A DNA stretch of 63,539 nucleotides, filler included, from Reclinomonas americana ATCC 50394 (Eukaryota), in assembly GCA_048213135.1 (NCBI GenBank). It is 9 parts of 6 records of this genome, joined end to end, with 100 filler letters (N's around TTAATTAATTAA, not from the genome) between each part and the next. Parts side by side here need not be neighbours in the genome. Positions count along the whole stretch, not along the records: positions 45,267 to 53,204 come from PS015261.1; 8 more parts are not named here. One strand, given 5' to 3'. Under the pieces are notes generated by a model. That model made no database searches. It was not told the origin of the DNA and saw only the letters and a list, made by a program, of their open reading frames with translations. The translations under genes and the position numbers were made by a program. This document shows, one piece after another, positions 1 through 62,454 of this stretch. The first letter of the stretch is position 1; the number at the start of each line of letters is the position of its first letter.

Positions 1-514
1 CCATAATCGCCTCCACGCCACCAAACTGGCCCGACTCCCACGTCATGAGACTGTCGGCCGTCTGTGCAAATAGTGTGAGTGTTTGCGTCACTTTTGTGTG
101 ACATGGCGCGAAAACGCACACGCTCAACGACAACAGACAACTCGAAGTGAAGTGTGTCAGTGTGTCAGAGTGCATATGTGTGTGTGAGAGAGACAGACAG
201 AGAGAGTGCGTGTATGTACAGAGTCAAGCAACAACGTGACGCAACATAGAGGCCCGCCAGACCCTCCAAGTTCGTGTCAAACGTTCCATAGTAGAACTGC
301 AGTGGATGCGACACATGCACATATAGTCAGTCACTCACGCACGACTTGCGGTGTGCGTGGAAGAGAGAGAGAGAGCGAGAGAGACTGCGCGACATGACAT
401 GTCGCGCGCCATCATCCGCAAATAGCTCTTCACACACGCACGTTCACACACGCAAGCACACACGCGTGCTCTCACCTCGACAAACTGTTGCCCGATCGTT
501 TGGAAATCTGCCAT
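1..514 (-). CDS. NTF2: Nuclear transport factor 2, 3' end truncated by window edge
   Basis: Three GT-AG exons splice to MADFQTIGQQFVE|FYYGTFDTNLEGLAGLY|TADSLMTWESGQFGGVEAIM, the typical NTF2 N-terminus. Confidence 0.93.
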
Positions 515-11149: not shown

Positions 11150-14100
11150 TTAAGTGCGCACACGCGGCTCAATCTTGAGCGACGCCGCAAATTGCTGATT
11201 ATCGTCCAGCACCGTCATCTGCGACGACGACAAGTGATGCAGCAGGTATTGCACCGGTCGAATGGGGTACGGCTGCTGCTGATACGTGCCAATCTCCATA
11301 ATGACCTTGGCAATGCGACGGCACTTGGCAAAGTTCACCATGGCCGTTCCGCGCCACGTATTTGGTGCACCGTCGTCGAGGAACACTAGATCCGTAAAGT
11401 ACAGACCAATGTAGGGGATGCAGGGCGGATCCACCTGCTGCAGATGCTGGCGCAGTCGGTACATGCCGTTGCGCGGCGACATGAGTTCGTCCAGCTCCTC
11501 ATGCAGCTGCACCACGCGCTTCGACATCAGCTCCTTGGTTCGCTTCAGACGATGTACAGCAGCTGAGGACAGGCCGCCCAGAATCTCGTGCACGCCGTTG
11601 AGGTTGTTCAGCGGAGTGCGGCAAAGCTGCGGGCGATATGGAAAGAGATAAGGGACATGGAGACAAAGGTGGAGAGGCACACAAGAACGATGACAACGCA
11701 CACAAACACAACATCATTTCATGTACACCCTTTTCTCACGCTCTTGCTCACATACACACAAGCTTCTCCACACTCTATCTTTCTCTCGCACACGGGCAAA
11801 CACACGGTTCTTCTTCTATGCAATCCTCTCGCTCCACGGAACACCAACTCACACGCATCCTCAAACACACACAAAAACTTCGCTCCATATCTCTTCTCCA
11901 CTTTCTCCACTTTCGCTATCGTTTCTCTCGCCCGCACACAAACACAGCACTTCACTTTGACATCCATTATCTCTCTTCCACACACAACAATTCCCTTCCC
12001 TTCAGCACACATTTCTTTTCCAATTTCAACCATGTCTTACCCTCTTCCCCATCACACCACGAACTCAGCTTTCCCTCTATCTCTACTTCAAACGCATAGT
12101 TATTCCCTCTCGCTATCATTACTCTCTCCACACACAGCTCTTCTCTGTCCATTCCCACCCTCCCCCTTTACCCCCTTCCCTTCCATTCCCCTCCCTCACC
12201 TGCGCAATCTCAATCCACTTGGACATGATCTTCTTACGACGAGCAACGTCGGGCTCGGTGACAATCGACGTCGCCACATAGCGCGACACCACGTTGAAGC
12301 GGTCAATCATGCGCATAATGTTGGGTGCCGAGTCGTACTTGTGCGACTTGGTCCAGCACTGATTCATCAACTCACGCGGCTGAATTCTTCTAAAGAGCGA
12401 ATACTCGACGAGCGTGAGCTGCCGTGCAATCTCCAATGACGGCCACTGGGACGAGACGAAACAATCAGCGCCCACCACCACAACAATACACAACAACAGA
12501 GCCATGGAACAGGAGGCGCAACTTGCAGCAGATTAAACGTCTGGTTCTGCGTGATGCGACTGCGCGGCAGCATTGGCTCCGGCGTCACCAGCTGAAGCGC
12601 CTGCTGCCAGTCCATGTCGCCACTCATGCCGCTGCCCACCAGCTGCTTGATAATCGACTTTTGCAGCTGCGCCGCGCCATTGCCGCGCAAGTGCGTGCTC
12701 ATGAACATGTCACAGAAGCGCGCGAGCCTCGCCACCAGCGTGCTGTCGAAATCGTAAAAGTGCTTGTCGACCCACGTGCGCAAGTTGTTAAACACACTGT
12801 GGCGGATGACAGGGTGATGAGTTCTTCGTCCTTCCTGCTCACGCAATGAGAATCACATCTCGCGCACGCACCGCAAACGGATTTGAGTCGTGATGCCGTC
12901 ATCGTTGCCGGACATTGCATCGGCGGCGATAAAGCGGAACAAGAGACCACGAAGCAGTTCGGCAGGCGGCGTGAACGAGCGGTACGTGAGGAAATAAACG
13001 GTGCGGTAGTTGGGATCTGCGATCCGGAAAAGAAGCCAGTCAGCAAAAATGCCTCCCTCACTCTGCTCTCTGCTTCATACTCTGCCGTCTCGACAACGTA
13101 CCCTGATTGCTCGGGCTGGTGATCATGTCAATCAGCTTCTCCACCGTGCCGGCACGGATGGAGGCGTTGGGCGAACGCGCCGCGCGCGCGACCGCAGCAG
13201 CAGGGGCGCCCGTGGGTGATCGTGGACCCGACTGCATTTTTCTCACAGGCGTGAGCATCGTAAACACGAGAGAGGGAACTCTATCTGTACGCACCTCTGC
13301 GGATGAGCTCAGCCCGTCGGCCGAGTCCGGAGTGGCATTCGGTGTCAGCGCAGATGAGTCGCTGCTCGACGCTGTGTCCACCGCTGCGCCAGCAGCCGGA
13401 GCAGCACCCTCATCGTCGCCCTCAAACAACAAGTTCTGGTCCGACTCGGGCTCGGCACTTCGAATCACTTCGCGTGCCGTCTCCACCTCCTCGTCGTACG
13501 ACTCGATGAGCACGGGTCCAGAAGCGGTACTGCAACACTTGTCGTGTGAGAAACACAACACCATCGCGACTGTGCAGATGATTCAAAACAACCGCAACTC
13601 CACCGCCGACTTGGTCACGCACTCCCAGATAAAGTCCTGCAGACAGCGCACATTGAAGCCGTCCAGTGCCGACACACTGCGCTCTGCTTGTGGCAGAATG
13701 ACGGTGCACAGCTCGGCGAACTTGGCCATCCACAAGTCGCTCGCTACCAGCGGCAAGCCCTCACCCGTCTGCAGGACACTGGAGTGTGAGTTCATGGACG
13801 GGTGAACGAATGGAGAGAAGCAAGGGGGGAACAGACCCGAATGAGAGCATGCAACACCACAGACAACTCTTGCGGCGACTCTTGCAGCGTCGGCAGCTTG
13901 CACTGGGAGAACACGGCACTGAACAGCAGCTTCCAGCTCCGTTGACCGCACTCGCGGGCCGCAGTGGCTGTTGCATTCGCACGATCATTGAGAACTCGCG
14001 CATGGGAGTCAAGGGGACGATGATGACGAAAGAGACGAAACGAGATGGACCAGCCGGAACAATGTACGGCGCGAAATGCAACAAGAAACACGGCACCGTC

Positions 14101-17100: not shown

Positions 17101-20100
17101 TGAATCGGTGCAGCAGCAAGGCGAACTCGATACGGCGTTGATTGGCGCGCTTGATCTCGTCGTCGTCTTCAAACTGCAGCAGCGAATGAAAGGGGAATAA
17201 GCATGTGATTTGACAACAAGGAGTCATCGAGGTATGATAATGCACGCAACGTTGACGTCTTCTGCAACCTCCTCCACGTCCTCCAACTCATCTGCATGAG
17301 TGGCCGACGACACGAGAGAACGCTCATCCTCCAGCGGCAGGTCAGCAAACGCGGAGCCAGCGGCCGGTGGCGGGCTGACCGGTGGTTCGTCGATGGCGGG
17401 AACGGCGTCGGCTTTGGTGCTGATGAGGCCACTGGAGGGACTGACCATCACGCGACTCACATCCGAGGCCAGCGATGGACTGGTGGCCGAGCGGAGTGTG
17501 GCCAGAGGCACGGAACTGGCACGACGAGCGAGGCGGGCACGCAGATCGTCAATGGCCTGCGGTGTGAACAGGTCGTCGTACGACAGCAGCTTCAGCCACT
17601 CCTCCATCAGCACCAAGTGGAACGGCCGCTCCGTGTCCATGCTGTCGAAAATGTACTGCACATACGACGACAGCAGCGTGTTCTGTCGAGTGCTGTACGA
17701 CAGCGACTGCACCACCGGATCTGCTGCGAACAGAAGAGGGGCCAGGATCAATGCAACGAGGAGAAAAAGTACGCTTCAACAATCACTGCTGCTGTTGCAC
17801 ACACACACCTGCCGACAATGACGAGGAGGACGCAGAGCCCAGCAACTGCCGGCGCGACGATGAAGTCAGCGACGCCGCAGACGGCAGAGTCGGGACCACA
17901 TTGTGCGTTGACACGCCACGCATCAGTCTGATGGACATGGCGAGGGCGCTCGAATCGTCACCACCCGAATCGGCACCTAATACACAACGCGCGCGTGAGT
18001 TCTCAGAGTCAGCAGCATCAACGCTCGAGTGGCTGCAATAACGCACCAGCCGAGGCGACAACGGTGCGACGCTCGCGCTGCATCTCGAGAGCCTTGGCCG
18101 ACTCGCGCAGCAGCGACAGCAAGGTGATGAAGCACGTGCGTTGCACATGGGAAACACTCTCCATGAACTGCGCAGTACAAATGAGAAGCCGTGGTGACGA
18201 CGACCAAAATAGACGGAGCGCACGCACCCGCTGTGATCCACGATCGGGAGGCGAGGCAGCCATGCGGGGCGCCGACAATCCAATGGCCACCGAGTGCCGT
18301 CTGGGCGACGGCTGACTCTCTCCGCCGCTGAATGAGCCGCGCGATGTGGGCGACGAGCCAAGTGCGTTGCGTGGTGAATCCGGCGATCCAGAGAGCATGC
18401 TGATCGGCGCTGCTCCCGCCGTCGGCGGCGATGCCAGTGCGTCAGACAGGCGCAATGGCGGAGTCGAGCCGGAGGGCAGAGAGTTGCGCGGCGAGTTGAG
18501 CGGCGAGTTGCGTGGCGACGACAATTTGACGGTCTCCGACAACTTCTCGGCGAGAGCATGCGTGGTGATCTTTTCCTCCACAGGCTTGGGCGCGGCCGCC
18601 GTGCCTGCGCAGAGCGAACACCAACATGGGGTGAGTGAATGACAATCGAGAAAGAATCAGCTTACGTGGCACACGAACCTTGCAACATGGACGTGAGCAG
18701 CGATGTCATTCGCTCCGGCGCCTTCTCCATCGAGACAAAGGTGGTCGATCTGCGCGATCCGCGGGGTGAAGAAGTGCCGCCAGTCGCTGCAGCAGCGGCC
18801 GCTGCCGTCGCTGCCAGCGGGTTCTGCTGCTCCGGCGTGCTCATGACAGAGTTGCTGCGCGGCGATTCCAGCGAGTCACCGGCAGTGCTGTGCGAACGCT
18901 CTCGCAGGCCGAACGAAAAACGGTGGCCCTGCACGAATCACATGAGCAACGACACATATAAAAAAGAGTGTGGCGCAGGTGAGCATGAATACTTACCGCG
19001 CTCTGGCGCGGCGATGCAGGTCCGCCTGCGCCACTGAGGCCGCGAGTCGGTCTCGGCTGCAACATCAGTGCACCGGCAGCACCGAGCGCACTCAGTGTGG
19101 GAGCATCGGTGGCCGAGCGCGGCGACGCAAGCGACGCCGAGCTGCCGCCGTTCGACTTGATCAGCGACATGGCCTTTTCCGAGGCACTGGCGGCTTGCGG
19201 AGCTGCGCACGGATGTGGAAGGGTGAGCGAAAATATACAAGCGCAGAATAATATGACACAGAGTGGACGCAACGCGAGGTCTGTTGCAGTGCCGCCAGAT
19301 TCAAGGCGGGCACGGGTGATCCCTTTTGCGAGCCGGGCGACGAGAGCGTTGGCGACGTCACTCCAGTCAGGTTGAGTGGCGGAAGGATCGGTGACCGCGA
19401 TTGCGCAGCGACGTTGGCGGGAGGTGAGAAGGCACTGGGCGATGACATGCCCAGTGGCTCCATGCCACCGCCAAAGCCACCACCGCCGCCAGAGCTGCCA
19501 CCTCCGTCGACCATCACCAGGCGAGGCACTTGCGCCATGGTTTGCAACAGCAGATTGAGAAGTACCTACGCCGCCAAGACAGCTTTGAGGAAGGAAGCAG
19601 GAGCAGGGTAGAAGTAAGTCAACATCCACGCAACGGGCAAGTATGGAAGCAGACGTGAAAAGTCGGCCTGACGCAGTCCACTCATCGTCTCGCGACATTG
19701 GCCCAGGGCGGCCTCCAGGAAACGCACATTGCGCTTGCCACGACTGAGCGGAGGAGCAAGATATGAGACGGCAATAGGAAGAGGATCGAGCACAAATCAA
19801 CGCACGTGAATTCCAGCGTGTCGAGAAGCGGAGAGCAGCCACTGTAGAACTTGTTGACCGAATCATCCTGCGGCTGAATGGTGCTGACGAGACGCGTGCG
19901 GCACGTAAACAGCTTGCGACCGCCAGCCACCACCGGACATCTGTGTGAAAGCATGTAAGAGACCACGCACAACCCCACGAGCACGCTACACACGAAACGT
20001 CGAGCGCGGTCCGTGCTCCATGTAACCGGAGAGGAGGCCGGTGTACACCTCCAACTCGTGCTCCTTGTCCGCAATGATGCCCTCCTCGAAAATGGGCATG

Positions 20101-23100
20101 ATGGAGTAACCCAGCAGCGTCTGCAAGTTCCATGAGAAACACAGGAGAAATAGGTGAAAAAAAGAGTCATTACGCGGGCAGCTGACCTTGGTGGCCGGCA
20201 CCAGCTCGTTGGTGCTCACAATGTTGCGGCGACTGCTAATGTTGTAGAACAAGAACAGGAGATGGTGCTTGCGCTGGAACGGCACCGGCAGGTTGACGCG
20301 GAATTCGTCAAAGAACTGCGGGTTGCGCACATTGTAGTGGACCTCCGACTGCGCCATCGGGCAAAACTTGGGCGAGCCGTGCTTTGTGCGGAACGCACTC
20401 AGTGTGCCAGGCAACAGCTCGTCGCCGCCACCGCCCGATGGTGACGGCGGTGCGCCACTGCCATCGCTCCCGGCCAGCGATCCAATCGGGTACGGCAGGT
20501 CATCCGTGTCGCGCAGAATGGCCTGTGCGTGCGCGCGGAAATGAGGTGTGGCGCTGAGATTGCAGCTGGTGCATGTCCGTGCACACTCACCCTCACGAGG
20601 ATGTTCCGTGCATCGCGCACACCGCCAAACCGTGCCACCAACGGGTACACAAAGAGTTCGTGCTGATACGTAAAGTACGGTGTGCGCGGGATGCTGGTGG
20701 GAATCTCCTGCACCAGTGTGTAACTGCGCAGCAGGCGCTCCTCGTACCTAATCACCGCGGAAGGTCGTGGACGATGTGAGCGCGGATGATAATTCAGAGA
20801 TCTAACAATGACGCAACAGGAAACGCTGGTACAGCATTTGCTGCTCGTCGCGGCGACTCTTCTTGGCCAGCTTTCGCAGCGCTTGCTGGGCCTGATCGCA
20901 CACTGATGTAAGACACAAGCTTGACCATGATGAGCATTCGCCGAAATGTGGAACGCACCCTGCCACGCGAGACAACGGCGCCGTCGTCCTCCGCCTCGTC
21001 CTCGGTGGCGGAATCCGAGTCGTCCGAGTCGTCTGCCGCAGCGTCGGGAATGGATGAACCGTTCGCCGACCTGGCGGTTGACTTGCGACGCTTGCGCTTC
21101 TCCTCAGCATCGAGGTCGGCCAGTGTCGCGTCATCAATGTCGGCGGCGATTGGACTGAGGGCGGAGGAGTGCGGTGAGTCCATGGAAGGGAGAAAGAAAG
21201 GAGGACGAATCATGGGGGTTCACGCAACGTGACGCTGAGTGCAATGTGGCCGGGAATCATGCGGAGGTGCATGTCGGCATTGCCCGAGTTGATGTACTCG
21301 CAAAAGTCGAACGGGCGTGATTCGTCCGAGGCCGGAACCTGAGAGGCAGTCGATTAGCAAGGAAAAGTAATCTTGCACGCATACACATTCTTCTTCGTGG
21401 ATCGGCAGTCGCGTGCGCGCGCGCGCGCTCTCTCTCTCTCCCCTCAAAGAACGCTGATTCTCACCTGATACAACGGCCGCAGACGAATGTAGCCCTTGCG
21501 CATGTGCAACCGTTCACCCGGCGACGTGCCCTCCGACGAAATGTCCATGGTGGCGAAATCACGATCCTGCGTGCGACGCGACGCCAGCTCGGCCTCGCGA
21601 TGAAAGAGCGGCAGCGCGGTCCACACAAAGGGCTCGCGGTAGTCGCCGTACTGAATGCACACCTCGCGTGCCTTCAGGCGTGCCATTCTGTTGCATGCGA
21701 GTGAGATTGGTCTTCACCCGAAGAAGCAAGACAACAACAATAACCGCCGCAACTCAGATGGCACAAAGTTCTTGTCCTCGGCTGCCAGCCGCACGGACGT
21801 GTAGGGGCGATGCGTGGTGCTCTCGGGTGCACCCTGCAGCACCTTTTCCACCCACATCACCAGCGCCACTGCGCGGAGGGGGGGGGGGGGGGGGGGGGGC
21901 AGGGAGGGGGGAGGGAGGAGGAGGTGGAGGAGGAGGGAAGGGGGAGGGAAGGGAAGGAAGGGAAAGGGAGAGAGGAAAGGGGAGGAGGAGGAGGAGGAGG
22001 GAGGAGGNNNNNNNNNNNNNNNNNNNNNNNNNNNNNNNNNNNNNNNNNNNNNNNNNNNNNNNNNNNNNNNNNNNNNNNNNNNNNNNNNNNNNNNNNNNNN
22101 NNNNNNNNNNNNNNNNNNNNNNNNNNNNNNNNNNNNNNNNNNNNNNNNNNNNNNNNNNNNNNNNNNNNNNNNNNNNNNNNNNNNNNNNNNNNNNNNNNNN
22201 NNNNNNNNNNNNNNNNNNNNNNNNNNNNNNNNNNNNNNNNNNNNNNNNNNNNNNNNNNNNNNNNNNNNNNNNNNNNNNNNNNNNNNNNNNNNNNNNNNNN
22301 NNNNNNNNNNNNNNNNNNNNNNNNNNNNNNNNNNNNNNNNNNNNNNNNNNNNNNNNNNNNNNNNNNNNNNNNNNNNNNNNNNNNNNNNNNNNNNNNNNNN
22401 NNNNNNNNNNNNNNNNNNNNNNNNNNNNNNNNNNNNNNNNNNNNNNNNNNNNNNNNNNNNNNNNNNNNNNNNNNNNNNNNNNNNNNNNNNNNNNNNNNNN
22501 NNNNNNNNNNNNNNNNNNNNNNNNNNNNNNNNNNNNNNNNNNNNNNNNNNNNNNNNNNNNNNNNNNNNNNNNNNNNNNNNNNNNNNNNNNNNNNNNNNNN
22601 NNNNNNNNNNNNNNNNNNNNNNNNNNNNNNNNNNNNNNNNNNNNNNNNNNNNNNNNNNNNNNNNNNNNNNNNNNNNNNNNNNNNNNNNNNNNNNNNNNNN
22701 NNNNNNNNNNNNNNNNNNNNNNNNNNNNNNNNNNNNNNNNNNNNNNNNNNNNNNNNNNNNNNNNNNNNNNNNNNNNNNNNNNNNNNNNNNNNNNNNNNNN
22801 NNNNNNNNNNNNNNNNNNNNNNNNNNNNNNNNNNNNNNNNNNNNNNNNNNNNNNNNNNNNNNNNNNNNNNNNNNNNNNNNNNNNNNNNNNNGGCAGGGAA
22901 GGGGGAGCAGGGTGAGTGGCAAGGGGGAAGGCGAAGGGGGGAAGACGGAAGGAAAGAAGGAAAAGGGGAAGGAGAGAAGGGGGCAGGGAGAAGGAGGAAG
23001 GGAGAAGGGGGAAGGCTAAGGCAGGAAGAACAAAGAGGAGAAGGAGAGGGCGGGATGATCAAAAAGGAGGAGACGGAAAGGGGAAGGCGAAGGGAGAAAT

Positions 23101-24246: not shown

Positions 24247-24346
24247 NNNNNNNNNNNNNNNNNNNNNNNNNNNNNNNNNNNNNNNNNNNNTTAATTAATT
24301 AANNNNNNNNNNNNNNNNNNNNNNNNNNNNNNNNNNNNNNNNNNNN
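24247..24346. other. Artificial scaffold linker
   Basis: N44-TTAATTAATTAA-N44 with stops in all six frames. The same linker occurs at 32353, 39510, 45167, 53205, 57986, 60518 and 62301. Confidence 0.97.
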
Positions 24347-32331: not shown

Positions 32332-32882
32332 TCTCTACTGTGTAGCGCTTGCNNNNNNNNNNNNNNNNNNNNNNNNNNNNNNNNNNNNNNNNNNNNTTAA
32401 TTAATTAANNNNNNNNNNNNNNNNNNNNNNNNNNNNNNNNNNNNNNNNNNNNGTGTGTGACAAGCCAGGACTCTTATTTGCGTGAAGTTGCAAGTCCACC
32501 AACTCACGCGCATGCGACCTAACTAGCCGGACAGTAGTGATAATTGCAGATGCCACTACGAAGGCGAGAACAGGCGCACGAAAGTCGAGCATACGTTGGT
32601 TCTCTGAAGCTTGTATTTCACGAGCAGAATACAGATGCGTGAAGAGCAGAGAGGAAAGTCACAGGGTGCAACGACTGAGTCGTGGGGTGACCTGTCGAGA
32701 GTCAAACAGCAAGGACAGGAGCCTCTCCTCGAGATGAGAACCGTGATATCTCCGGCTGAATCAGCAGCCGCCACATTCGAACACCTGATGAAGAGAGCCG
32801 TCCCCTCCGCTGCTGTCCATTCCCCTCTAAGCAGAGCCCACAGAGTACCCGTTTGGAGAAAGCATAACCTATACTCCCTCAA

Positions 32883-35692: not shown

Positions 35693-38600
35693 ATGAGCGG
35701 AGGAGGTGCCGGTCGCACGTCTGTGCGTTATCCCAACACGGAGATGCCGTTTGTGTGGTGGCGCGGGCACTGCCACACGCGATATGTGTCGATGAATGAT
35801 CCGTTTTATCATTCGTCGTCGGCGCTCATTCTGAAGATCCCTGGTGAGCATAGAGGAGAGAGGGTGGAGGAGACAGAGGGAGAGGGGGACAGAGGGATGT
35901 TGAGGGAGAGAGATTGGGAGAGAGTGTGGATTTGTGGTGATGAGAGTGGACGGTCGTCGTTAATTTGCTCATCGATGCCGCGCTCGTTTCCGCTCTCTCT
36001 GCGAGAGTGTGTGATCTTCTTCTCGTGCTATGCATGTACTCAGTCGATGGGCGCGTTCGCGTTATCCAGTCCTCGATCGTATGCATTTTGCTTTCTTCTG
36101 TCACTCTTTCTCTCTCTGTCTCGCTCGCTTTCTCTCTCTCTGTCTGCCTTCTCTTCTTGCATCGAGGAGTCCTCGCACTCAAGCGAAGGGCGTCCTTTTT
36201 GCGCGCTGTTTGGTAACCCATGTGTGGCTTGCACATCCTCTCTCTTTGTTTCTCCAGGCGCTCACGTAATCGAGCGATGGGCGCCTGTTGCACGTCGTCT
36301 CAGTCAAACTTTGTCATCGATACGTGACTTGTTTCCCTTCACTCTTTCTCCATATCTCTCTCTCTCTCTCTGTGCTCGTCCTCCTTCCTTGCCAATCATT
36401 TGGGCGAATGGCGCTTCTCTTTGCTCACGCCTTGTCATTGATGTGTGACTTGCTCATCTGCCCCTCTCTCTCTTCACTCGCTTGCACTGTCTCCACCTCC
36501 TTGTCGGTCTTCAACGATTGTCGATGTCTTGCTTCCTCTTCATCTACTCTCTCTCTCTCCTTTCTTCGCCTTCTCCCCTTTCCCTCTCCCACACTCACTC
36601 TTCGGCCACAGATCCCTACGGGCAATACCAAACACGCCTGGTATACGAGGGCGGCGTGCGAGTGTGGGAATCCGGTGCGCGTCACGTGTGGGACACGTCG
36701 ACGGGTCGCCCGTCCACGGCAGGCACGAGTGGCGGTGCGTCGGCTGCACTGATTGATGACTCAGAGCGCGAGGGAACGTGGTTGGACTCGCTACGTGATA
36801 CGGAAGGTGTGGTTGTGGGGAAAAGACTAGGGAGGGCAGAGAATGAAGAAGGAGAGCGAGAGAGAGAGAGCAACAGCGAGCGGTACAGAGAGAGCAACAG
36901 CGAGCGGTACAGAGAGAGCAACAGCGAGCGGTACAGAGAGAGCAACAGCGAGCGGTACNNNNNNNNNNNNNNNNNNNNNNNNNNNNNNNNNNNNNNNNNN
37001 NNNNNNNNNNNNNNNNNNNNNNNNNNNNNNNNNNNNNNNNNNNNNNNNNNNNNNNNNNNNNNNNNNNNNNNNNNNNNNNNNNNNNNNNNNNNNNNNNNNN
37101 NNNNNNNNNNNNNNNNNNNNNNNNNNNNNNNNNNNNNNNNNNNNNNNNNNNNNNNNNNNNNNNNNNNNNNNNNNNNNNNNNNNNNNNNNNNNNNNNNNNN
37201 NNNNNNNNNNNNNNNNNNNNNNNNNNNNNNNNNNNNNNNNNNNNNNNNNNNNNNNNNNNNNNNNNNNNNNNNNNNNNNNNNNNNNNNNNNNNNNNNNNNN
37301 NNNNNNNNNNNNNNNNNNNNNNNNNNNNNNNNNNNNNNNNNNNNAGCGTACAGAGAGAGCAACAGCGAGCGTCAGAGAGAGCAACAGCGAGCGTCAGAGA
37401 GAGCAACAGCGAGCGTCAGAGTGAGCAACAGCGAGCGTCAGAGTGAGCAGCAGCGAGCGTCAGAGTGAGCAACAGCGAGCGTCAGAGTGAGCAACAGCGA
37501 GCGTCAGAGTGAGCAACAGCGAGCGTCAGAATGAGCAACAGCAAGCGTCAGAATGAGCAACAGCAAGCGTCAGAATGAGCAACAGCAAGCGTCAGAGAGC
37601 AACAGCGAACGTCAGGGAGAGCAGCAGCGAGCGTCAGAGAGAGCAACAGAGAGCATCAGGGAGAGCAACAGAGAGCATCAGGGAGAGCAGCAGCGAGCGT
37701 CAGAGAGAGCAGCAGCGAGCGTCAGAGAGAGCAGCAGCGAGCGTCAGGGAGAGCAGCAGCGAGCGTCAGGGAGAGCAGCAGCGAGCGTCAGGGAGAGCAG
37801 CAGCGAGCGTCACAGAGAGCAACAGCGAGCGTCAGAGAGCGCAACAGCGAAGCGTTTGAGCGCTGAATCGCTCACCCTTTCGCTTCTCGTCGCAGTTTTC
37901 CTGACGGACGGCGGTCCCGAGGGTCAAGAGAACCAGCGCCGTTACTTTTTGTGCACAATCAAGGTGCCGCACGGACAGGGCGTGCTGAAGCGCGCCGACG
38001 GAACCACCATCTACGAGGGCACATGGCGCGACGGGTACGTCTCTCCCTCTCTCGCATCTCACTCACTTTGTCCTCTTTCGCTGACCTCCGCATCATCCAC
38101 GCAGAAATCGCCACGGCACTGGCGACGGTGAGTACGAGACAGGACGGTACTATGGCGAGTGGGAAAATGGGTGGATGGAGGGCGAGGGCACATACACCAA
38201 CTCCGACGGTGACACGTTCCGCGGTGCGTGGAAAAAGGACATCATCTGGGAGGCCGAAGTTGCGTGCACACTCCCCTCCTTCCCGAGTCGCGCACATTGC
38301 TCATGCATTTCGAGCAGGGGTCCATGCTCCTCAAGAACGGTGAGGTGTGGGCCGGCACGTGGCATCACGGTCTCTTCAAGGGTCAAGTGGTGCAGCCGAA
38401 CGGCGACAAGTACGAAGGCGAGATCAGTATGGGTCGCTGGGTGTTTGGCGATCGGCCACCGGCACCCTCGGCACCCACCTCCGGCCCGTCGTCGCTAGCC
38501 GGTGCAGGCGGTGAGCATACTTCATGAGTCTCGCCATTTTATCGAGAAGAGAGAGTCTTACTCTGCCGTAGGTGTCACGGGCGTTGGTGGCGTGGCCACA

Positions 38601-39357
38601 CACATGGCGGCGATGGAGTTGCACCAGGTGGCCGTCGATGCTCTGCCGCGGGGCACTGCTGGAGGTGTTGGTGCGTTTCTTCTCCTCTCGTGTATTCTTC
38701 TTCTTCGCCTGGCCTTAACTCGTGGTCGTCACAGGCGCCGCTGGCGAAGATCCCGATTTCCTGGCTGTCAGCCTGGCGATTGCACGCAAGGACGGCGACG
38801 CCATCAATCCGCGCTTGCGATCCGTGTTTTCTCGCCAGTTTATCGCCGGCTTGCGTCAGGGCTCTGGCAAGGAGACACTGGTCACCGGCGGCACGTATGT
38901 CGGGTACTGGCAGGACGGACTGCGCCACGGCTTTGGCACGTTTACGTGGCCCGACGGACAGACCGAGCAGTTGTTCTACCAGAACGGACGATTGATGCAC
39001 AGTTGCGTCGCTGAAGTCCATGCGTTCTCTTGTGTGAATTGACGCTGACTTTGGCGTACTGAAAATGGCAGTGAGGACGTGTGGAGTCTCCACAGCGCCC
39101 GCCATGATGTCGCCACCATCCGGGGGCATGTCGGCGGCGACGCCTGGCATGGCCGATCGACATGCTCTCGGCACTGCAGAGGTGCGGTGGGGAGAGAGAG
39201 AGAGAGCGAGAGAGGGAGAGAGAAGGAGAGAGAAGGAGAGAGGAAGGAATGGAGAGAGGAGACAGTGTGGGGGGAGCGAGAGGGGGAGAGAGAGGGAAAG
39301 TGACAAGAGGAGAGAGAGAGGGGGGACAGCAAGAGGGAGGAAATGAGTAGACGGAGC

Positions 39358-39509: not shown

Positions 39510-39609
39510 NNNNNNNNNNNNNNNNNNNNNNNNNNNNNNNNNNNNNNNNNNNNTTAATTAATTAANNNNNNNNNNNNNNNNNNNNNNNNNNNNNNNNNNN
39601 NNNNNNNNN

Positions 39610-41862: not shown

Positions 41863-42660
41863 GGGCTTCTTAACTGACTTTTTTCCCCTTCTCCCACCCC
41901 CTCCCACCGCGTANNNNNNNNNNNNNNNNNNNNNNNNNNNNNNNNNNNNNNNNNNNNNNNNNNNNNNNNNNNNNNNNNNNNNNNNNNNNNNNNNNNNNNN
42001 NNNNNNNNNNNNNNNNNNNNNNNNNNNNNNNNNNNNNNNNNNNNNNNNNNNNNNNNNNNNNNNNNNNNNNNNNNNNNNNNNNNNNNNNNNNNNNNNNNNN
42101 NNNNNNNNNNNNNNNNNNNNNNNNNNNNNNNNNNNNNNNNNNNNNNNNNNNNNNNNNNNNNNNNNNNNNNNNNNNNNNNNNNNNNNNNNNNNNNNNNNNN
42201 NNNNNNNNNNNNNNNNNNNNNNNNNNNNNNNNNNNNNNNNNNNNNNNNNNNNNNNNNNNNNNNNNNNNNNNNNNNNNNNNNNNNNNNNNNNNNNNNNNNN
42301 NNNNNNNNNNNNNNNNNNNNNNNNNNNNNNNNNNNNNNNNNNNNNNNNNNNNNNNNNNNNNNNNNNNNNNNNNNNNNNNNNNNNNNNNNNNNNNNNNNNN
42401 NNNNNNNNNNNNNNNNNNNNNNNNNNNNNNNNNNNNNNNNNNNNNNNNNNNNNNNNNNNNNNNNNNNNNNNNNNNNNNNNNNNNNNNNNNNNNNNNNNNN
42501 NNNNNNNNNNNNNNNNNNNNNNNNNNNNNNNNNNNNNNNNNNNNNNNNNNNNNNNNNNNNNNNNNNNNNNNNNNNNNNNNNNNNNNNNNNNNNNNNNNNN
42601 NNNNNNNNNAACCACAAACAGAAGTGAATTGATCGGGAGGAATCACTCACTTTCATGCAG

Positions 42661-42924
42661 GTGCTGCATGCCGCCAACCTCGATCCGAGTGTGGTCGGTG
42701 CCGTGACACAAAAGCTGGACGACGTGCTGGAGGAGAAGAATGCCGAAATTGGCGACCTCACCGAGCGCCTGGCGCAAGTCACCAAGGCCCACAACGACGT
42801 GATTCGTGTGTACGAGGAGAAGCTCAGGCAAAGCGGCATCCCCATCGAGGACCTCGGCTTCCGACCGCTCATCGCCCGCAATGTCCAACTGGGCGAGGGT
42901 CCGGCCGGCCTGGTCACCGGATGA
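42661..42924 (+). CDS. GAS8: GAS8/DRC4 C-terminal exon
   Basis: VLHAANLDP..KLDDVLEEKN..KAHNDVIRVYEEKL..GIPIEDLGFRP. Confidence 0.9.
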   Translation: MLHAANLDPSVVGAVTQKLDDVLEEKNAEIGDLTERLAQVTKAHNDVIRVYEEKLRQSGIPIEDLGFRPLIARNVQLGEGPAGLVTG

Positions 42925-45108: not shown

Positions 45109-45266
45109 GTGAGTGAGATAGGCGTCAGGACCGCCTTCACCATTTTGGCTGATTGTGTGCGTTCGGNNNNNNNNNNNNNNNNNNNNNNNNNNNNNNNNNN
45201 NNNNNNNNNNTTAATTAATTAANNNNNNNNNNNNNNNNNNNNNNNNNNNNNNNNNNNNNNNNNNNN

Positions 45267-45784
45267 CGCCGCCGGCACCGTCTCCGCCAGCAGCTGAGAG
45301 AGAGAAGGAGTGAGAGACGGGAAAGGAAGGAAGGCAGAGGCGACGTATGGGAGAGAGAAAGAGATGGAGAGATCAAAAGGGAGGGAGGGAGTGAAGAGGA
45401 GGATTGAAAGGAGAGAGAGAAGGCCTTGCGAGAGACAAGAAAAGCAAGGAAGTGGAAAGTGATATAGGACCGTAGGGAAGAGGAAGAGGTTGGGAGGAGG
45501 AGGAGTGGGAGGAGAGGGAGAGAGAGAAGGCAGTGGAAGAGAGAGGGAGAGAATGAATGAGAGACAAGAAAAGCACGGGAAAAGAAAACTGTAGGGGAGA
45601 TGAAGAGGTAAGGAGGAGGCGCCATAGGTGGAGAGAGAAGAAAGACAAACACAAAGCAGCGGAAGAGAGAGAAGACTCAGAAAGTGCGCGCGCATGTGAG
45701 TGACAAAGCGTTACCTGCACTGGCGGCGCCTGATGACGGTCGCGATCCCTTCTTTCCTTTCTTTCCCGACTGTGCACGACGAGG
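45267..45784 (-). CDS. Two short exons of an unidentified gene flanking a CT-rich intron
   Basis: ..RDRHQAPPVQ|gtaacg...tctcag|LLAETVPAA; both ends lie in gaps. Confidence 0.35.
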
Positions 45785-46911
45785 NNNNNNNNNNNNNNNN
45801 NNNNNNNNNNNNNNNNNNNNNNNNNNNNNNNNNNNNNNNNNNNNNNNNNNNNNNNNNNNNNNNNNNNNNNNNNNNNNNNNNNNNNNNNNNNNNNNNNNNN
45901 NNNNNNNNNNNNNNNNNNNNNNNNNNNNNNNNNNNNNNNNNNNNNNNNNNNNNNNNNNNNNNNNNNNNNNNNNNNNNNNNNNNNNNNNNNNNNNNNNNNN
46001 NNNNNNNNNNNNNNNNNNNNNNNNNNNNNNNNNNNNNNNNNNNNNNNNNNNNNNNNNNNNNNNNNNNNNNNNNNNNNNNNNNNNNNNNNNNNNNNNNNNN
46101 NNNNNNNNNNNNNNNNNNNNNNNNNNNNNNNNNNNNNNNNNNNNNNNNNNNNNNNNNNNNNNNNNNNNNNNNNNNNNNNNNNNNNNNNNNNNNNNNNNNN
46201 NNNNNNNNNNNNNNNNNNNNNNNNNNNNNNNNNNNNNNNNNNNNNNNNNNNNNNNNNNNNNNNNNNNNNNNNNNNNNNNNNNNNNNNNNNNNNNNNNNNN
46301 NNNNNNNNNNNNNNNNNNNNNNNNNNNNNNNNNNNNNNNNNNNNNNNNNNNNNNNNNNNNNNNNNNNNNNNNNNNNNNNNNNNNNNNNNNNNNNNNNNNN
46401 NNNNNNNNNNNNNNNNNNNNNNNNNNNNNNNNNNNNNNNNNNNNNNNNNNNNNNNNNNNNNNNNNNNNNNNNNNNNNNNNNNNNNNNNNNNNNNNNNNNN
46501 NNNNNNNNNNNNNNNNNNNNNNNNNNNNNNNNNNNNNNNNNNNNNNNNNNNNNNNNNNNNNNNNNNNNNNNNNNNNNNNNNNNNNNNNNNNNNNNNNNNN
46601 NNNNNNNNNNNNNNNNNNNNNNNNNNNNNNNNNNNNNNNNNNNNNNNNNNNNNNNNNNNNNNNNNNNNNNNNNNNNNNNNNNNNNNNNNNNNNNNNNNNN
46701 NNNNNNNNNNNNNNNNNNNNNNNNNNNNNNNNNNNNNNNNNNNNNNNNAAGAGGAACAACAGTGAGCCATCCACTGTGAATGTATGTGAGAGACAGGGAA
46801 ACAAAACGGTCACTCACCATTGGCAAAGGAAAAGAGAAAACGCTCTGGAAACGCGCGAGTCGATTGTCTACGGTGCGGATTGTCACGCACTCAAATTGGC
46901 TCACAACAAAC

Positions 46912-48224
46912 ATGTCCAGGTGCACAGCCCGCGCCCCTCCCCCCTCTCTTCCTCTTCTCTCTTGCTATGCCTCTCTGTGTCGTGCGCATGCTGCATGTTG
47001 TCACTTTATGCATGTTGTCGTGTGAGAGGATTCATCACACTCATCTTCTTGTGCACACACACAGGTACGATCGCGCGTTGACAGTCTTCTCCCCCGACGG
47101 ACACTTGTTCCAGGTGCGTGCATCATCGCACACAAGAGCGCGTGTGTGTGTCTGAGAGAGAGAGAGAGGGAGATGGTCATGTTGGCGCGCAAAACACGCA
47201 CACACTCGCCACTCAACACTTGTCTTGTGCGTGCGCGCGTAGGTGGAGTATGCCTCTGAGGCTGTGCGGAAAGGCTCAACAGCAGTTGGAGTGCGCGGCA
47301 CTGATGTTGTGGTGAGCATTGCTCGAAAAGAGAGAGTGAGTGAGAGTGAGAATTCCCTTGTCTTACTTGTGTGTGTTTGTGTGAAGGTGTTGGCTGTGGA
47401 GCGCAAGAGCACTGCCAAGCTGCAGGAGTCGCGCACTGTGCGCAAGATCTGTGTGCTTGATGAGCATGTGGCGATTGCATTTGCTGGTTAGTTGTCTCGA
47501 GAGGGAAAAGAGGGTGTCTTTCCTCCAGAGAGTTGCTTGTCTCTCGGGAGAGGGAGAGAGAGAAGCAAGTGGTCTTCTTTTCTCATTCTTTTGTCGGAAG
47601 CTTGTTGCCTGTCTCTCAGCAGAATTATGCCTGCCTTGTTTGGCGTGTTGCCGGCACGCATATGAGAGGGAGAGGTTTCGTGCTTCTTTCTCAGAGTGAG
47701 AATGCCTGCCTTGTTTGCGTTGATGTGCTGTCGTTGGCGCTTTACCGGTCCCACATGCGAGGGAGAGGTTCTCTCTTTTGTCGCTTGTCTCGTGCTTCTT
47801 TCTCAGAGTGAGAATGCCTGCCTCGTGTGCTTTGATGTGCTGTCGCCGGAGTCAGGCAAGCGAGGGAGAGTGAGAAAGCATCTTGTCTTGCGTGCTTTCA
47901 TTCTTTGTTGTTTGTGTGTTACTTTGTCGCGAGAGTGGCACAAGACAAGTTCTCATCTTTCGTCTCCTGCATGGAGAGAGAGAGAGAGCAGGCGTTCGAC
48001 GTTTCAAGTTCGATTCCCCTGTTGTTGACACCGTGTTCGTCGCGCTAATAGATAGAGAGAAAAGTGAGAAGATGAGAACTGAGGTTCTTGCATTGCTGGT
48101 TCTGGCTTGTCAAGAGAGGACAGTGTGGAGAACAGTTTCCGTCGAGTCTCACGAGAAGCACGTAAGACGACTCGAGCTCTCGTTTTCCTTCGTGTTCTTG
48201 AATCCTTTCATGTCTTCTCTTCTC

Positions 48225-48307
<83 letters not shown>

Positions 48308-49370
48308 CACTCCTCTCTNNNNNNNNNNNNNNNNNNNNNNNNNNNNNNNNNNNNNNNNNNNNNNNNNNNNNNNNNNNNNNNNNNNNNNNNNNNNNNNNNN
48401 NNNNNNNNNNNNNNNNNNNNNNNNNNNNNNNNNNNNNNNNNNNNNNNNNNNNNNNNNNNNNNNNNNNNNNNNNNNNNNNNNNNNNNNNNNNNNNNNNNNN
48501 NNNNNNNNNNNNNNNNNNNNNNNNNNNNNNNNNNNNNNNNNNNNNNNNNNNNNNNNNNNNNNNNNNNNNNNNNNNNNNNNNNNNNNNNNNNNNNNNNNNN
48601 NNNNNNNNNNNNNNNNNNNNNNNNNNNNNNNNNNNNNNNNNNNNNNNNNNNNNNNNNNNNNNNNNNNNNNNNNNNNNNNNNNNNNNNNNNNNNNNNNNNN
48701 NNNNNNNNNNNNNNNNNNNNNNNNNNNNNNNNNNNNNNTTGAGTGCCAGTCGTTCCGCCTGACATTCGAGGACGCCGTGTCGGTCGACTACATTACTCGT
48801 CACATTGCCAAGGTGCAGCAGCGATACACGCAGAGTGGTGGTGTGCGGCCCTTTGGTGCGTTTTCAAGTGATCGATCTCTATCTCCGTCTTCTCCTTCTT
48901 TGCTGACCGCCCACCAGGTGTGTCCAATCTGGTGGCTGGCTTCGACTCGGACGGCACTCCACGATTGTACACGACGGAGCCGTCGGGTGCCTTTTCGGCG
49001 TGGAAGGTGGGCAATTGGCCCTTGTGGTGGTGTGGAGTTGGTGAGTAGGCATGCGTACTCACAACCTCTGTGCGCATAGGCGAATGCAATTGGTCGCGGC
49101 GAGAAGACGTGCCGCGAGTTTTTGGAGAAGCACTACACGGAGCCGCCATCTGGCGACGACGCAGTGATGCTGTCCATTCGCACGCTGCTCGAGGTGGTGG
49201 AGAGCGGCTCAAAGAACGTCGAGGTGGCGGTGATGTACCCGAATGCGCCGATCCGCTACCTGACGGAGGAGGAGGTGTCGCAGGCGGTGAGCCGCATCGA
49301 GGCGGAGCAGGCCGAACAGCAGGCCGCTGCCGCAGAGGGCGCAGGTGGTGCCGAAGGTGCTCGCCGCTGA
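46912..49370 (+). CDS. PSMA7: 20S proteasome subunit alpha4
   Basis: [56 protein letters not shown] and [11 protein letters not shown]. Confidence 0.97.
48220..48318. repeat. (CT)n + (TTTC)n microsatellite in PSMA7 intron
   Basis: Directly visible tandem repeat. Confidence 0.9.
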
Positions 49371-49578
49371 GACGTGGGCAAAACGAGCGTACGTGTGTGT
49401 GTCTGTGTGTGTGCGTGCGTCGCAGCGCCACTGGGTGGGGAGAAAGGAGTAGGGGTCGTTCGTAAAAAAAAAAAGAAACATGGAAAATACGAGTAACAAC
49501 AACAAAACAAGTGATTCATTTTACAGTTACAAGCACGCTCGCTGCGGCGGCGGCGGCGGCGGCGACATCGATGTTCTC

Positions 49579-52500
49579 TTATCGGCCATTCGACGCCGTT
49601 TTTTCGTCCTCCAACCTCTGTAACCGGGCCGCCATGTCGCGGATCACCACCAACAAGCTCGCCGTGTCCACGCCAGCATCGGCCGGCTGTGGTGCCGACT
49701 GATCGCTCAGTTGGCACGGTGGTGACGATTGTCGCACGAGATCCTCCAGTTCCTGGATGCGACTCTTCGAGGCGTCGAGCTCCGATTTCAGCGCCTTGAC
49801 GCTCTCAATCAGGAACGGAACGAGCTCCTGGTACGCAATGGCTTGCACCTGGCCGTCCTCCACCATGACCACCTGGCGACGCAAAAAACAGTGAGTGAGA
49901 GACAGCGTGCAAGCATGGGAGTGAGCTTGGCAACGCACCTCCGGAACAATGTTCAGCACGTCCTCGGCAATGAGACCCGTCCACCGCCGCGTGTTTGCCA
50001 CGTCCTACCGAGCACACAAACATGCAGTCGTCAGCCAAGAAACACAAGGGATACACATCCGTGCGCATGCGGTGGGCAGACGCAACAGTGCGGTCGTACT
50101 GCACACCCTGCAAGCTGAGGATGCGATCCAGCGCAATGTTGGTATCAATCGGTGTGATGTTGGTCTTGAAACGGCGAGATGACATGGTGACCTGCGACAT
50201 TTGGCACGGTGTCATTTAGTGTCGTGCAGATTGGAGTGAGGAGCAGCCAAACGGCGACGCACAATGCCTCGAACTTGCAGATTGCCATTGCTGCTCAGCG
50301 ACATGTCCATGCGAGCGACACCGGCTGCGACACGACGATGGTCAGATTGCAATTCAAAGAGGAGAACAGAGAGACGCTGCACGTGCACGCAACTTGCCCA
50401 GTCATACCACTGCAACTGCGTAGCAGTGGTGCCCATGGTCCACGTGGTTGTCGCGGTGCCAGTGTCGAATGTCATCGCATCCGTGGTGCCGTTCGGAGCG
50501 GTAACGGAGAAGGAGCTCAAAGAGCGCACTTTCTGTAAATGATGACGAATTGAGCAGAGGTTGGCGGAGTGTACTTGCAGAGGCATGAACGCAACTCCTG
50601 TGCCTGTGCCCTGCAGCGACAGGTGCGACGGTGACGATTGGATCAGCCTGCATCGATCGAGTGAGTTCACGATGAATGAACACGAGTTGTTCTTCTTGAT
50701 TACATGACACGCAACGTGGAGGTCATGCGCGTGAAGCCACCGGTGCCGTCGGAGATGGTCAGCGTGCCGGTGCTGCCGTTGATAGTCGCCAGAGTGCTCA
50801 CTTGCAGGGTGGCCGCCGAAAGGGTGGTGGTCGCTGACGCCAGTTGGATGGTGGCCGACGCCGACGGCACCGTGCCCGCACTCGCGCCCACACCGAGGGT
50901 GAAGGTGCTCTGGTCCGTCAACAGTGATCTGTGTGATGCTGCTGTTAGCTGGCGCCGAATGAACCCCACACATTCCTTCCAAAACAATGACAGACACGCA
51001 ACGATTTGGTGAGGTCGAAACGGCCGACCGAGTCGGTGAGGAAGACGCCACCACGCGCCGTGTCGGTGACAATGGATGCCGTGCCCGCCGCCATGGTGAA
51101 CACTCCAGCGGGGGCGACTGTCAGCGTGCTGGTGGGTGTGCCCGTCACACTGATTGCAAAGGAGGCGGCTGTGGAGGCGAGCGACGAGTCGGTGAGCGAG
51201 GCCGATGGACTGCCACCGGCCGCCGCCACCGTCACCGTGCCGGTACCGGACCCCGATAGCGTAACACGCTGATTAACGTCCAGCGTGTTCGAGGTGCCGG
51301 TGATGCGCACGCTGCCATTGGCTGGCGACAGAATCAAGCCCGCTCCCTGTGTAGCGCACATGTAAGCGAACTCAACAAGTCAACTCCACAAGCCGTGGTG
51401 GTGACGTACCGAAGCAGCGGGTCCAGTGGTCGACAGAGTCGGTGGCGCCGTGCCCGCCAGTCGCAGCGTGTTCGTCCCGGAAGCTTGCGTGATGACGGCC
51501 ACACCGGTTGCCGGCTGCACGGTAATGTCGCTCGAGGTCGACGCCAGCAGCAGTGTGGTTTCCGCGCGCACAGTGGTGGCACCAATGCTGCGTCGATCAC
51601 AGAGTGAGAAAAACAGGATAAGTGGGGTGTGGCGCAGTGACGCATACTCACCGAAGAATGTTGGAGCCGGGCGATACGAGAATGTCTTCGGTGCCCGTCT
51701 GAATCTGGAAGGTGGTGCCGCCTGCCCAAACACATGACAGTGAGTAGAATGCATGCCGACTGGGGTGATGTGAAAACGAAACTCTGTGGCTCGCCACGCA
51801 GCACGCCCGACACAATGCGCACTGGCTGTGCCAGGGCGGACGACGCCAAGGCCACTGAGCCACTGGCCGACGCCACCGTCAGTGTGGCGCTGCCACGGAA
51901 CGTGGAGCCAGTCAATCTGTGATACAGCGCAATGAGGAAACGAGCATTGGCTTGGAAGGGGGAAAACACAAAAGCACGGACCGCAGCACGCCGGAGAACG
52001 GTTGCAGCTCAATGTCACCGACTTGATTGCGGATGCGGAACTGCGTGGCCGTGTTTTGCGCAAACAACTCGTCGCCGACAAAGAACAGAGTGCCCGTGGA
52101 GCTGGTCAGCGTGAGTGGATTGCCCATGCTGGAGGTCAGCTGTGGGCAGTAGAGAGAGCGTTGGTGAGATGGGGGTGATGTACGTAAACAATGAGAAGGA
52201 CGTGCAAACCGAATCCGTCTGGAAGTTGCTGGCCACCAGATTCGCCACGTTGAGTGTGCCGGCAATCACCACTTCGTTGGACGGTGCAGAGGGTGTGAGT
52301 ACGAGACTGCCGTCGCCCGCGGTGCGAATCGAGCTCGTGCCTGCAATGCGGGAGAGTGAGTGAGAAGGAGACCTTGACAGTGCACGGATTGAGAAGAATC
52401 GCAACTGTTTGCAAATGCCAGCGTGGTGGCCTGCAGTGTGATTTGTCCGCTGCTGCCGGTGGTGAGCGTCAGATTGGCCGACGGGTCTCGCACACTGACC

Positions 52501-52931
52501 TGTGCGTCGCCATCATCAAGTGGTGGTGAGCACAGCAAATCAACAACATCGCAAGATAGAACAGCGACGCAACTTGGTTGGTGATCACGCTCGGCAGATC
52601 CACACCGTCCTCTGCAATCAAACGACCCTCGACCACGAGTCTACGCGATCCAGGCGCAATGTAGAATGTCGAGTTGGTCGACGTTTGCTGCATGCGGAAG
52701 TCGCCACCGCGTGTGTTCACATTCCACGTGTCGGTGACAAAGTCGAGAATGCCACTGTGGAATTCGTCAGCAAGACAGGGAAAAAAACACCCCAGCACGT
52801 GGTTGTGGCAGCACGTAACTTGCCGGGTTTGAGAGTGATGCCACCAGTGTTGGAGATGATAAAATTGTTGGTGTCGGCCGAGATGCTATTGCCGATCTTG
52901 GGCTCCAGCGACAGCGTACCGTTGCCACTCA
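49579..52931 (-). CDS. Fibre-like T/S/G/A-rich beta-repeat protein with C-terminal peptidase S74 / intramolecular chaperone domain and coiled coil; 5' end missing
   Basis: Sixteen in-phase exons. C-terminus NGNLQVRGI|VTMSSRRFKTNITPI..LDRILSLQGVQYDR..GLIAEDVLNIVPE|VV..AIAYQELVPFLIESVKALKSE. Confidence 0.85.
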
Positions 52932-53030
52932 CTTGCAAACAAGTGGGTGTCGTCTGGAAAGGGGGAAGGGAGAGGGAGAGGGAATGGGGAGAGTGAGAGG
53001 GAGAGAGGGAGGGTGGGTGGGAGGGGGAAG

Positions 53031-53074
<44 letters not shown>

Positions 53075-53451
53075 GAGGAGGAGGAGGAGGAGGAGGAGGA
53101 GGAGGTGTGCGACGCGCGACGAACGAAGAGAGTAGAGACGCACGACGACGGAACGAACGAACGACGCGGCGACGCGACCGCCGACGTACGACGACCGCCG
53201 TACCNNNNNNNNNNNNNNNNNNNNNNNNNNNNNNNNNNNNNNNNNNNNTTAATTAATTAANNNNNNNNNNNNNNNNNNNNNNNNNNNNNNNNNNNNNNNN
53301 NNNNGAGAGAGAGAGCGCGAGAGGGGGAGAGTGAGAATGGATACAGAGAGACGAGAGACAGAGAGAGAAAGAAAGAACAGTCTGCATATATCACAAAACA
53401 GATCCAAGCGAATACCGAGCGAGTGAGTCACCGCACGGAGAAGCACTCACC

Positions 53452-57985: not shown

Positions 57986-58085
57986 NNNNNNNNNNNNNNN
58001 NNNNNNNNNNNNNNNNNNNNNNNNNNNNNTTAATTAATTAANNNNNNNNNNNNNNNNNNNNNNNNNNNNNNNNNNNNNNNNNNNN

Positions 58086-60517: not shown

Positions 60518-60672
60518 NNNNNNNNNNNNNNNNNNNNNNNNNNNNNNNNNNNNNNNNNNNNTTAATTAATTAANNNNNNNNNNNNNNNNNNNNNNNNNNN
60601 NNNNNNNNNNNNNNNNNCGCTCGCCTTTCACGACGAACTCACCCACGTGTTTGTCGCTCTCGGCGTGCACAG

Positions 60673-62300: not shown

Positions 62301-62454
62301 NNNNNNNNNNNNNNNNNNNNNNNNNNNNNNNNNNNNNNNNNNNNTTAATTAATTAANNNNNNNNNNNNNNNNNNNNNNNNNNNNNNNNNNNNNNNNNNNN
62401 CAATAGCGAGAGAACGAGCGAGACAATGTGCCGTCATTCTACAGTATTCTTTCT

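Follow-up and report, generated by a model that had tools for sequence, protein, structure and literature searches.

A fibre-like gene was identified in a 63,539-nucleotide (nt) stretch of DNA (hereafter the window) from the flagellate Reclinomonas americana ATCC 50394 (GenBank assembly GCA_048213135.1). This gene, referred to here as the fibre gene, lies on the minus strand and runs from 52932 (probably 52953) to 49582, with a TAA stop codon at 49581–49579. We favour, with moderate confidence, the reading that it is a resident nuclear gene of the flagellate for a phage-type fibre or spike, with a body of at least 617 amino acids (aa), a complete Peptidase_S74/ICA domain and a tail, and that it is derived from a virus or phage and has been assimilated. 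A viral fibre-building module seems to have turned into an ordinary host gene.

A C-terminal chaperone domain in an intron-rich gene

At its C-terminus, the product of the fibre gene has a complete intramolecular chaperone domain (~90 aa) and, after it, a helical tail of 61 aa. Endosialidases also possess a C-terminal intramolecular chaperone domain. Solved examples of this chaperone (CIMCD; Peptidase_S74, PF13884) include 6f45 ("Long tail fiber distal subunit") and 8jov ("Putative tail fiber protein"). Family and fold tests were performed exon by exon on unspliced translations, and the spliced model was used in pairwise alignment. Exon 14 alone (35 aa) matches Peptidase_S74 in Pfam over profile positions 1–29 of 58 (E 6e-8, 33.3 bits, cut-off 22 bits), and exon 15 carries the profile on at positions 37–55 of 58 with 12.5 bits. 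A preliminary description of this DNA, made from the sequence alone, had suggested such a search with the Peptidase_S74 hidden Markov model and had predicted an S74/ICA domain with a Ser and a Lys five residues apart. Both residues were located, as Ser618 (codon 50182–50180) and Lys623 (codon 50167–50165) within the motif SSRRFK, with codon coordinates read by eye. They fall at S74 profile position 1 onward and are in register with the Ser/Lys pair of the phage homologue described below.

In the PHROG search, exons 14 and 16 line up in order with the C-terminal ends of tail fibres, matching phrog_5668 at 1465–1494 and 1529–1563 of 1567 positions and phrog_8215 at 908–936 and 961–998 of 1000 positions. 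Exon 16 aligns to the last 35–45 positions of tail-fibre PHROGs. The AlphaFold2 (AF2) model of exon 16 shows a long helix at residues 14–48 (49833–49729), in a block with a predicted local distance difference test score (pLDDT) of 71–96, then a low-confidence linker and a second helix at residues 70–94 (49665–49591). The collinearity and the AF2 model agree with the earlier proposal of a domain placed C-terminally on a long beta-rich body and followed by a helix.

The closest relative of the domain was found in a scan of viral contigs. Contig L001 belongs to a tailed phage (myovirus), with a tail sheath gene assigned to phrog_11196 (E 4.8e-88), and contains an open frame of at least 1411 aa that is T/G/A/S/N-rich and has an S74 domain at its end. 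Spliced residues 617–707 of the fibre gene product share 41.5% amino acid identity over 94 aa with the last 90 residues of this frame (pairwise E 1.9e-16), and the ten-residue word LVPFLIESVK is identical in the two. This alignment spans introns 14 and 15, and therefore gives independent support for both splices. A tblastn search of 50,697 phage records returned weak matches, the best with E values of 0.05 and 0.01, nearly all of them under annotated tail fibres. Neither exon 14 nor exon 16 retrieved a homologue in word-index searches.

As in phage tail fibres, the domain of the fibre gene product closes a long beta-rich protein at its C-terminus, and it has the Ser/Lys dyad with its spacing of five, the conserved stretch in the middle and the amphipathic helix at the end. 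Unlike those of phages, the gene is nuclear, has host codon usage, and has its domain split by two of its 15 introns. The product also extends 61 residues, with a second predicted helix, beyond the phage end, and no similarity of its body to a phage protein was detected.

The exon structure was predicted with a dynamic-programming gene model, which was trained on the codon usage of five stop-free stretches and restricted to GT..AG introns of 40–200 nt. The model gives 16 exons, 15 introns and a product of at least 768 aa (Table 1), in line with the at least ~750 aa over 16 exons of the preliminary description; on orientation that description needs correction, the gene running on the minus strand. 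Every motif that it quoted, six beta-turn units and the C-terminal signature, is present in the minus-strand frames of 52932–49582, and together they are distributed among all three frames. The longest stop-free coding stretch of the model is 114 aa, not the continuous open reading frame (ORF) of a phage gene. All 15 introns have GT..AG borders and range in length from 63 to 83 nt, with 3′ ends of CAG in 14 and TAG in one. The 5′ ends are GTTGCG in seven introns and GTTACG in one. Lengths are not multiples of three in 11 of the 15 introns, and one further intron has an in-frame stop. The G+C content is 0.617 in exons and 0.522 in introns. For intron 15, the 768-aa model uses the alternative donor GTGCGT at 49938, which was chosen over the first choice of the model at 49947 because it restores the conserved stretch of the phage homologue.

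Table 1. Features of the fibre gene, its linked neighbour and other parts of the window.
Feature	Position	Strand	Basis or remark
Exon 1, visible part	52820..52953	-	Sure from 52932; probable start 52953 after CAG acceptor
Exon 2, 181 nt	52574..52754	-	Gene model; no family match
Exon 3, 94 nt	52406..52499	-	Gene model
Exon 4, 131 nt	52210..52340	-	Gene model
Exon 5, 158 nt	51982..52139	-	Gene model
Exon 6, 119 nt	51798..51916	-	Gene model
Exon 7, 70 nt	51652..51721	-	Gene model
Exon 8, 178 nt	51410..51587	-	Gene model
Exon 9, longest, 344 nt/114 aa, T/S/G/A-rich	51003..51346	-	Gene model
Exon 10, 213 nt	50716..50928	-	Gene model
Exon 11, 52 nt	50596..50647	-	Gene model
Exon 12, 139 nt	50394..50532	-	Gene model
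Exon 13, 50 nt	50275..50324	-	Gene model
Exon 14, first half of Peptidase_S74 domain	50087..50191	-	Pfam; phrog_1980 and phrog_5668, each E 1.5e-5
Exon 15, second half of S74 profile	49939..50004	-	Pfam, 12.5 bits; phage homologue alignment
Exon 16, last strand and long helix of chaperone domain, linker, second helix, then TAA	49582..49872	-	PHROG, homologue alignment, AF2
Proteasome alpha-subunit gene with spliceosomal introns, convergent neighbour	46790..49370	+	Proteasome_A_N, E 6.5e-9
Linker N44-TTAATTAATTAA-N44	53205..53304	.	Marks contig/scaffold end; sequence beyond need not adjoin in the genome
GAS8-like fragment	42628..42921	+	
MORN-repeat fragment	38085..39039	+	
DOCK-C2 fragment	18844..21209	-	
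RasGEF fragment	11153..12532	-	

The body of the protein and the 5′ end of the gene

The 617 aa before Ser618 are rich in Thr (17%), Ser (13%), Gly (10%) and Ala (10%), lack Cys and include seven N-x-S/T sites. Eight copies of the strand-Pro-turn motif [ILV]x[ILV]xP are present in this body, compared with 1.0 ± 0.96 in shuffled sequences, and none of 5000 shuffles reaches eight. Hydrophobic autocorrelation is found at lags 2, 9, 16 and 25 (z 2.5–3.2). These lags are suggestive of short strands in a solenoid with coils of ~25 residues, and the body is probably rich in beta strands and solenoid-like. In each of exons 5 to 7 (minus strand, 52139–51652), the 3′ border falls at or within the Arg codon of a [VI]-L-R triplet that comes after a strand-Pro-turn motif. 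The intron phases of these exons differ (2, 1 and 2), and the pattern hints at a structural repeat in which introns prefer one position.

In composition and in short strands spaced by ~9 and ~25 residues, the body resembles bacterial beta-helical passengers and adhesins (TIGR04393; filamentous haemagglutinin repeats), but nothing reaches a curated cut-off, and the resemblance is a lead on the fold, not on membership. For example, exon 9 matches TIGR04393 (T5SS/PEP-CTERM-associated beta-helix repeat) with an E value of 0.011 and 15.7 bits, below the NCBIfam cut-off of 23. The ESM Atlas likewise provides leads only, with exon 9 placed near S-layer and haemagglutinin-repeat proteins at 0.80–0.89 (<0.9), and exon 2 near a viral cluster at 0.93 and a Phage_T4_gp36 cluster at 0.91 (~100 of 256 features shared). 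No body exon has a match in Pfam or PHROGs, and exon 2 has none in Pfam at E values up to 10. Close-relative scans of JGI metagenome contigs with exons 2 and 9, and of prokaryote genomes and viral contigs with exon 2, retrieved nothing. In tblastn searches of phage records, one match was obtained for exon 2 at E 0.2 and none for exon 9. The viral contig L002 was considered as a relative of exon 9 and rejected; the match lies outside every listed ORF of at least 150 aa. Within the window, a phmmer search for paralogues with the model against 1315 ORF fragments matched only its own exons, a composition scan detected no second gene like the fibre gene, and a search of the whole window against Rfam gave no match.

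Exon 1 contains no in-frame ATG and is therefore not the first coding exon. A CAG acceptor at 52956–52954, behind a pyrimidine tract of ~170 nt, probably extends exon 1 to 52953. The tract, composed of (CCT)n and (CT)n at 53130–52957 of the minus strand, is unusually long for an intron 3′ end. The preliminary description had placed the 5′ end of the gene outside the visible part; the 5′ end is, however, not merely unseen. It is missing because the scaffold of the gene (positions 45267–53204 of the window, PS015261.1) ends at 53204, before a linker.

Eight pairs of 44-N runs, 12 nt apart, are present in the window (24247–24346, 32353–32452, 39510–39609, 45167–45266, 53205–53304, 57986–58085, 60518–60617 and 62301–62400), which we take to be artificial joins between scaffolds. 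In the pair at 53205–53304, TTAATTAATTAA is a stop in all six frames. The window resembles small scaffolds strung together, and the gene order across the joins is therefore probably not biological. The minus strand at 54700–53450 carries a gene in which one exon encodes a coiled coil, another a poly-proline run, and others resemble a WH2 motif and central region. Its tail was judged by eye to be WASP-family VCA-like, and its introns are ~70–77 nt long. This proline-rich, WH2-like gene cannot be counted as a neighbour of the fibre gene because it lies beyond the linker. Two ORFs of a probable secreted protein with a signal-peptide-like start are located at 56831–55737 of the minus strand, and have an Ependymin match below the cut-off (E 8.8e-6, 26.3 bits, cut-off 32.3).

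Host context and alternative origins

The codon usage of the fibre gene was compared with that of other genes in the window. Its relative synonymous codon usage correlates with that of 884 Pfam-supported codons of eight other window ORFs at r 0.88, compared with r 0.31 for the wrong frame and r 0.03 for the phage L001 fibre against the host. The G+C content at third codon positions is 0.753 in the fibre gene and 0.760 in the other window genes. The eukaryotic genes of the window encode RasGEF, DOCK, WD40, ribosomal protein SA, MORN, GAS8-like and proteasome alpha proteins. The proteasome alpha gene has its last two exons on the gap-free contig (48739–53204) of the fibre gene, and the stop codons of the two genes are 208 nt apart. 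The proteasome alpha introns with both ends visible are about 73–130 nt long. Given the host codon usage, the introns and the proteasome linkage, contamination and recent viral insertion are therefore both unlikely. The fibre gene is a resident eukaryotic gene, not contamination, as the preliminary description had argued from its host-type introns; the 15 GT..AG introns, the codon usage and the recurrence of the donor GTTGCG in other genes all speak for this view.

GTTGCG is an unusual 5′ splice hexamer. In the fibre gene it is found at minus-strand sites 52573, 52405, 51002, 50715, 50595, 50393 and 50086. Pfam-supported ORFs in the MORN, WD40 and DOCK genes also terminate at this hexamer, and its sites in other genes are 39002 on the plus strand and 62529, 20817 and 21228 on the minus strand. 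Over the window it occurs at 21 of 57 ORF ends, which is not above control hexamers at 0.23–0.44, so that the global test is not discriminating. The four donors of the proteasome alpha gene are GTGCGT, GTGAGC, GTTAGT and GTGGGC, not GTTGCG. One possibility is that the GTTGCG donors reflect an atypical pairing with U1, or that the organism has a second class of introns.

The alternative that survives best, although we regard it as unlikely, is that the fibre gene belongs to an endogenous viral element, such as a polinton-like virus (PLV), a virophage or a giant-virus insertion, either still as a part of it or as a decaying relic, and has no host function. Large modular fibres with a C-terminal Peptidase_S74 are called ubiquitous in PLVs of most eukaryotic groups (PMC12220804), and giant-virus genomic islands are enriched in S74 fibre proteins (PMC13620141). 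Because S74 fibres are known from PLVs and giant viruses, a viral source is the obvious origin of the fibre gene. The preliminary description had named the MYRF/MrfA transcription factors as the characterised eukaryotic carriers of the domain. MYRF does carry an ICA domain (PMC3742443), but the statement is incomplete, the S74 fibres of PLVs and giant viruses having been described as well.

Like the fibres of PLVs, virophages and giant viruses, which are presumed to be trimeric attachment fibres, the fibre gene product is a large eukaryote-associated protein with a single C-terminal Peptidase_S74. The viral genes, however, sit in elements beside capsid and packaging genes, whereas the only linked neighbour of the fibre gene is the housekeeping proteasome gene. 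The fibre gene is also dense with spliceosomal-type introns, with fifteen in 2.3 kb of coding sequence, whereas the available sections of the PLV report mention only group I introns. The modules laminin_G_3, collagen, adenovirus fibre and BppL_N, carried by the viral fibres, were not detected in the fibre gene exons. Its codon usage is indistinguishable from that of host genes and its composition is not virus-like, and the frame over 16 exons and the catalytic dyad are both intact. None of the 150 longest ORFs of the window, most of which are on other scaffolds, matched a viral hallmark family. The viral element retains some ground in that the upstream side of the fibre gene lies beyond the contig end at 53204, leaving room for viral neighbours, and in that homologue searches found no orthologue showing conservation.

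A second alternative, which we consider improbable, is a regulated release like that of MYRF, in which the missing N-terminus would hold a functional domain (DNA-binding or other) and the ICA domain would trimerise and release it without building a fibre. In MYRF, the ICA domain cleaves itself once trimerised, with a Ser/Lys pair (S578/K583) at the same spacing (PMC3742443), and a beta-helical stalk lies upstream of that domain (PMC8326128). The fibre gene shares with MYRF/MrfA that it is a cellular eukaryotic gene whose ICA domain has the same catalytic dyad, and its 5′ end lies beyond the contig end. In contrast to MYRF/MrfA, its visible protein has no Ndt80, transmembrane segment or MRF_C domain, and its ICA domain is terminal, not internal. 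Ndt80, MRF_C1 and MRF_C2 gave no match in the 14 exons of at least 20 aa at E values up to 1–10, exons 11 and 13 being too short to scan; the absence of Ndt80 from the visible part had already been noted in the preliminary description. The T/S/G/A-rich 617 aa adjoin the cleavage Ser on its upstream side, a place taken in MYRF by the DNA-binding domain. The protein ends 151 aa past Ser618 with no hydrophobic segment, and its maximum 19-residue Kyte-Doolittle mean, 1.54, is located in the body. The S74 domain is also nearer to phage sequences than to MYRF, as judged through L001, whose chaperone domain matches the phage fibre 6f45 with E 1.2e-4 and MYRF 7dc3 with E 0.13. In its visible part, the fibre gene is not a MYRF orthologue.

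The probability of bacterial or phage contamination or of a chimeric assembly is close to negligible: the C-terminal domain has its nearest sequence relative in a tailed phage (L001) and the assembly is very fragmented (34 N runs in the 63.5-kb window), but there is no single open frame, the coding sequence appears only after removal of 15 GT..AG introns, its codon usage is that of the host, and the gap-free contig is common to the fibre gene and two eukaryotic proteasome exons.

Several results weigh against the favoured reading of an assimilated, virus-derived fibre gene. The contig end at 53204 removes the 5′ end, so that the N-terminus, with a signal peptide, an anchor or another domain, is outside the visible protein. 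The exon-intron structure is a predicted gene model, with splicing derived from computation, and introns 11, 12 and 15 are formally open to read-through. These three introns bear the same splice signals as the rest, and an unspliced intron 15 would break the conserved S74 core. The fibre fold of the body is suggested by composition and periodicity only, and the AF2 model of exon 9 is unreliable (pLDDT 44.5). A full HMMER search with exon 9 against 1.84 billion representatives gave two matches, both judged compositional. These were a SprB-repeat protein and an Ig-domain protein, which were rejected as relatives of exon 9. No orthologue or paralogue was found. The 61-aa tail behind the chaperone domain has no counterpart in the phage homologue L001. 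In PDB sequence searches, exon 14 had no solved relatives and exon 16 only chance-level helical matches (E at least 0.68).

Proposed maturation and implications

The maturation of the protein can be proposed by analogy with the chaperone domains of endosialidases and tail fibres. Three chains would join through the C-terminal domain and its helix, and this C-terminal trimerisation may nucleate the folding of the shaft. When the trimer has folded correctly, Ser618 and Lys623 would cleave the chain immediately N-terminal to Ser618, and the cleavage would free a stable homotrimeric fibre and a C-terminal fragment of ~151 aa. The module would most likely have been taken long ago from a virus or phage, and would later have adopted the codon usage of the host and acquired 15 introns of host type. 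The product would most likely go to the cell surface or into a secreted structure, as an adhesion or structural fibre, yet this is only a guess because the N-terminus is missing. What is inferred here is that the chains trimerise and are cleaved, in which direction they fold, that the gene came by transfer, and where its product goes.

A more specific proposal is made tentatively. The fibre gene may be a vertically inherited protist gene that keeps the full fibre-maturation module with which the cell would build a structure of its own, for instance fibres on its surface, hairs on the flagellum or the cell body, filaments of extrusomes or an adhesin for prey. The preliminary description had suggested similar roles, namely a surface hair, an extrusome component or a prey adhesin. 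If true, this would be the first use of ICA in a eukaryote that is neither MYRF nor viral, with a part of a virion domesticated as a part of the cell.

S74-ended fibres have already been described for polinton-like and giant viruses of protists, and the intron-rich, host-adapted cellular copy is the new point. In the consulted passages of the reports on MYRF, PLVs and giant viruses, supplements aside, no cellular S74 copy rich in spliceosomal introns was found. So far, ICA in eukaryotes has two known settings, MYRF and the fibres of viruses that infect or integrate into protists. The fibre gene would, if the reading is true, represent a third setting, in which the whole module for folding, trimerising and cutting a fibre was taken over as a cellular gene. 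It would then be a tractable domesticated virion part and a candidate for the surface or extrusive filaments of protists whose proteins are unknown. Even if it were the edge of an old viral insertion, the fibre gene would show assimilation, with introns and host codon usage gained while the frame and the catalytic residues were kept.

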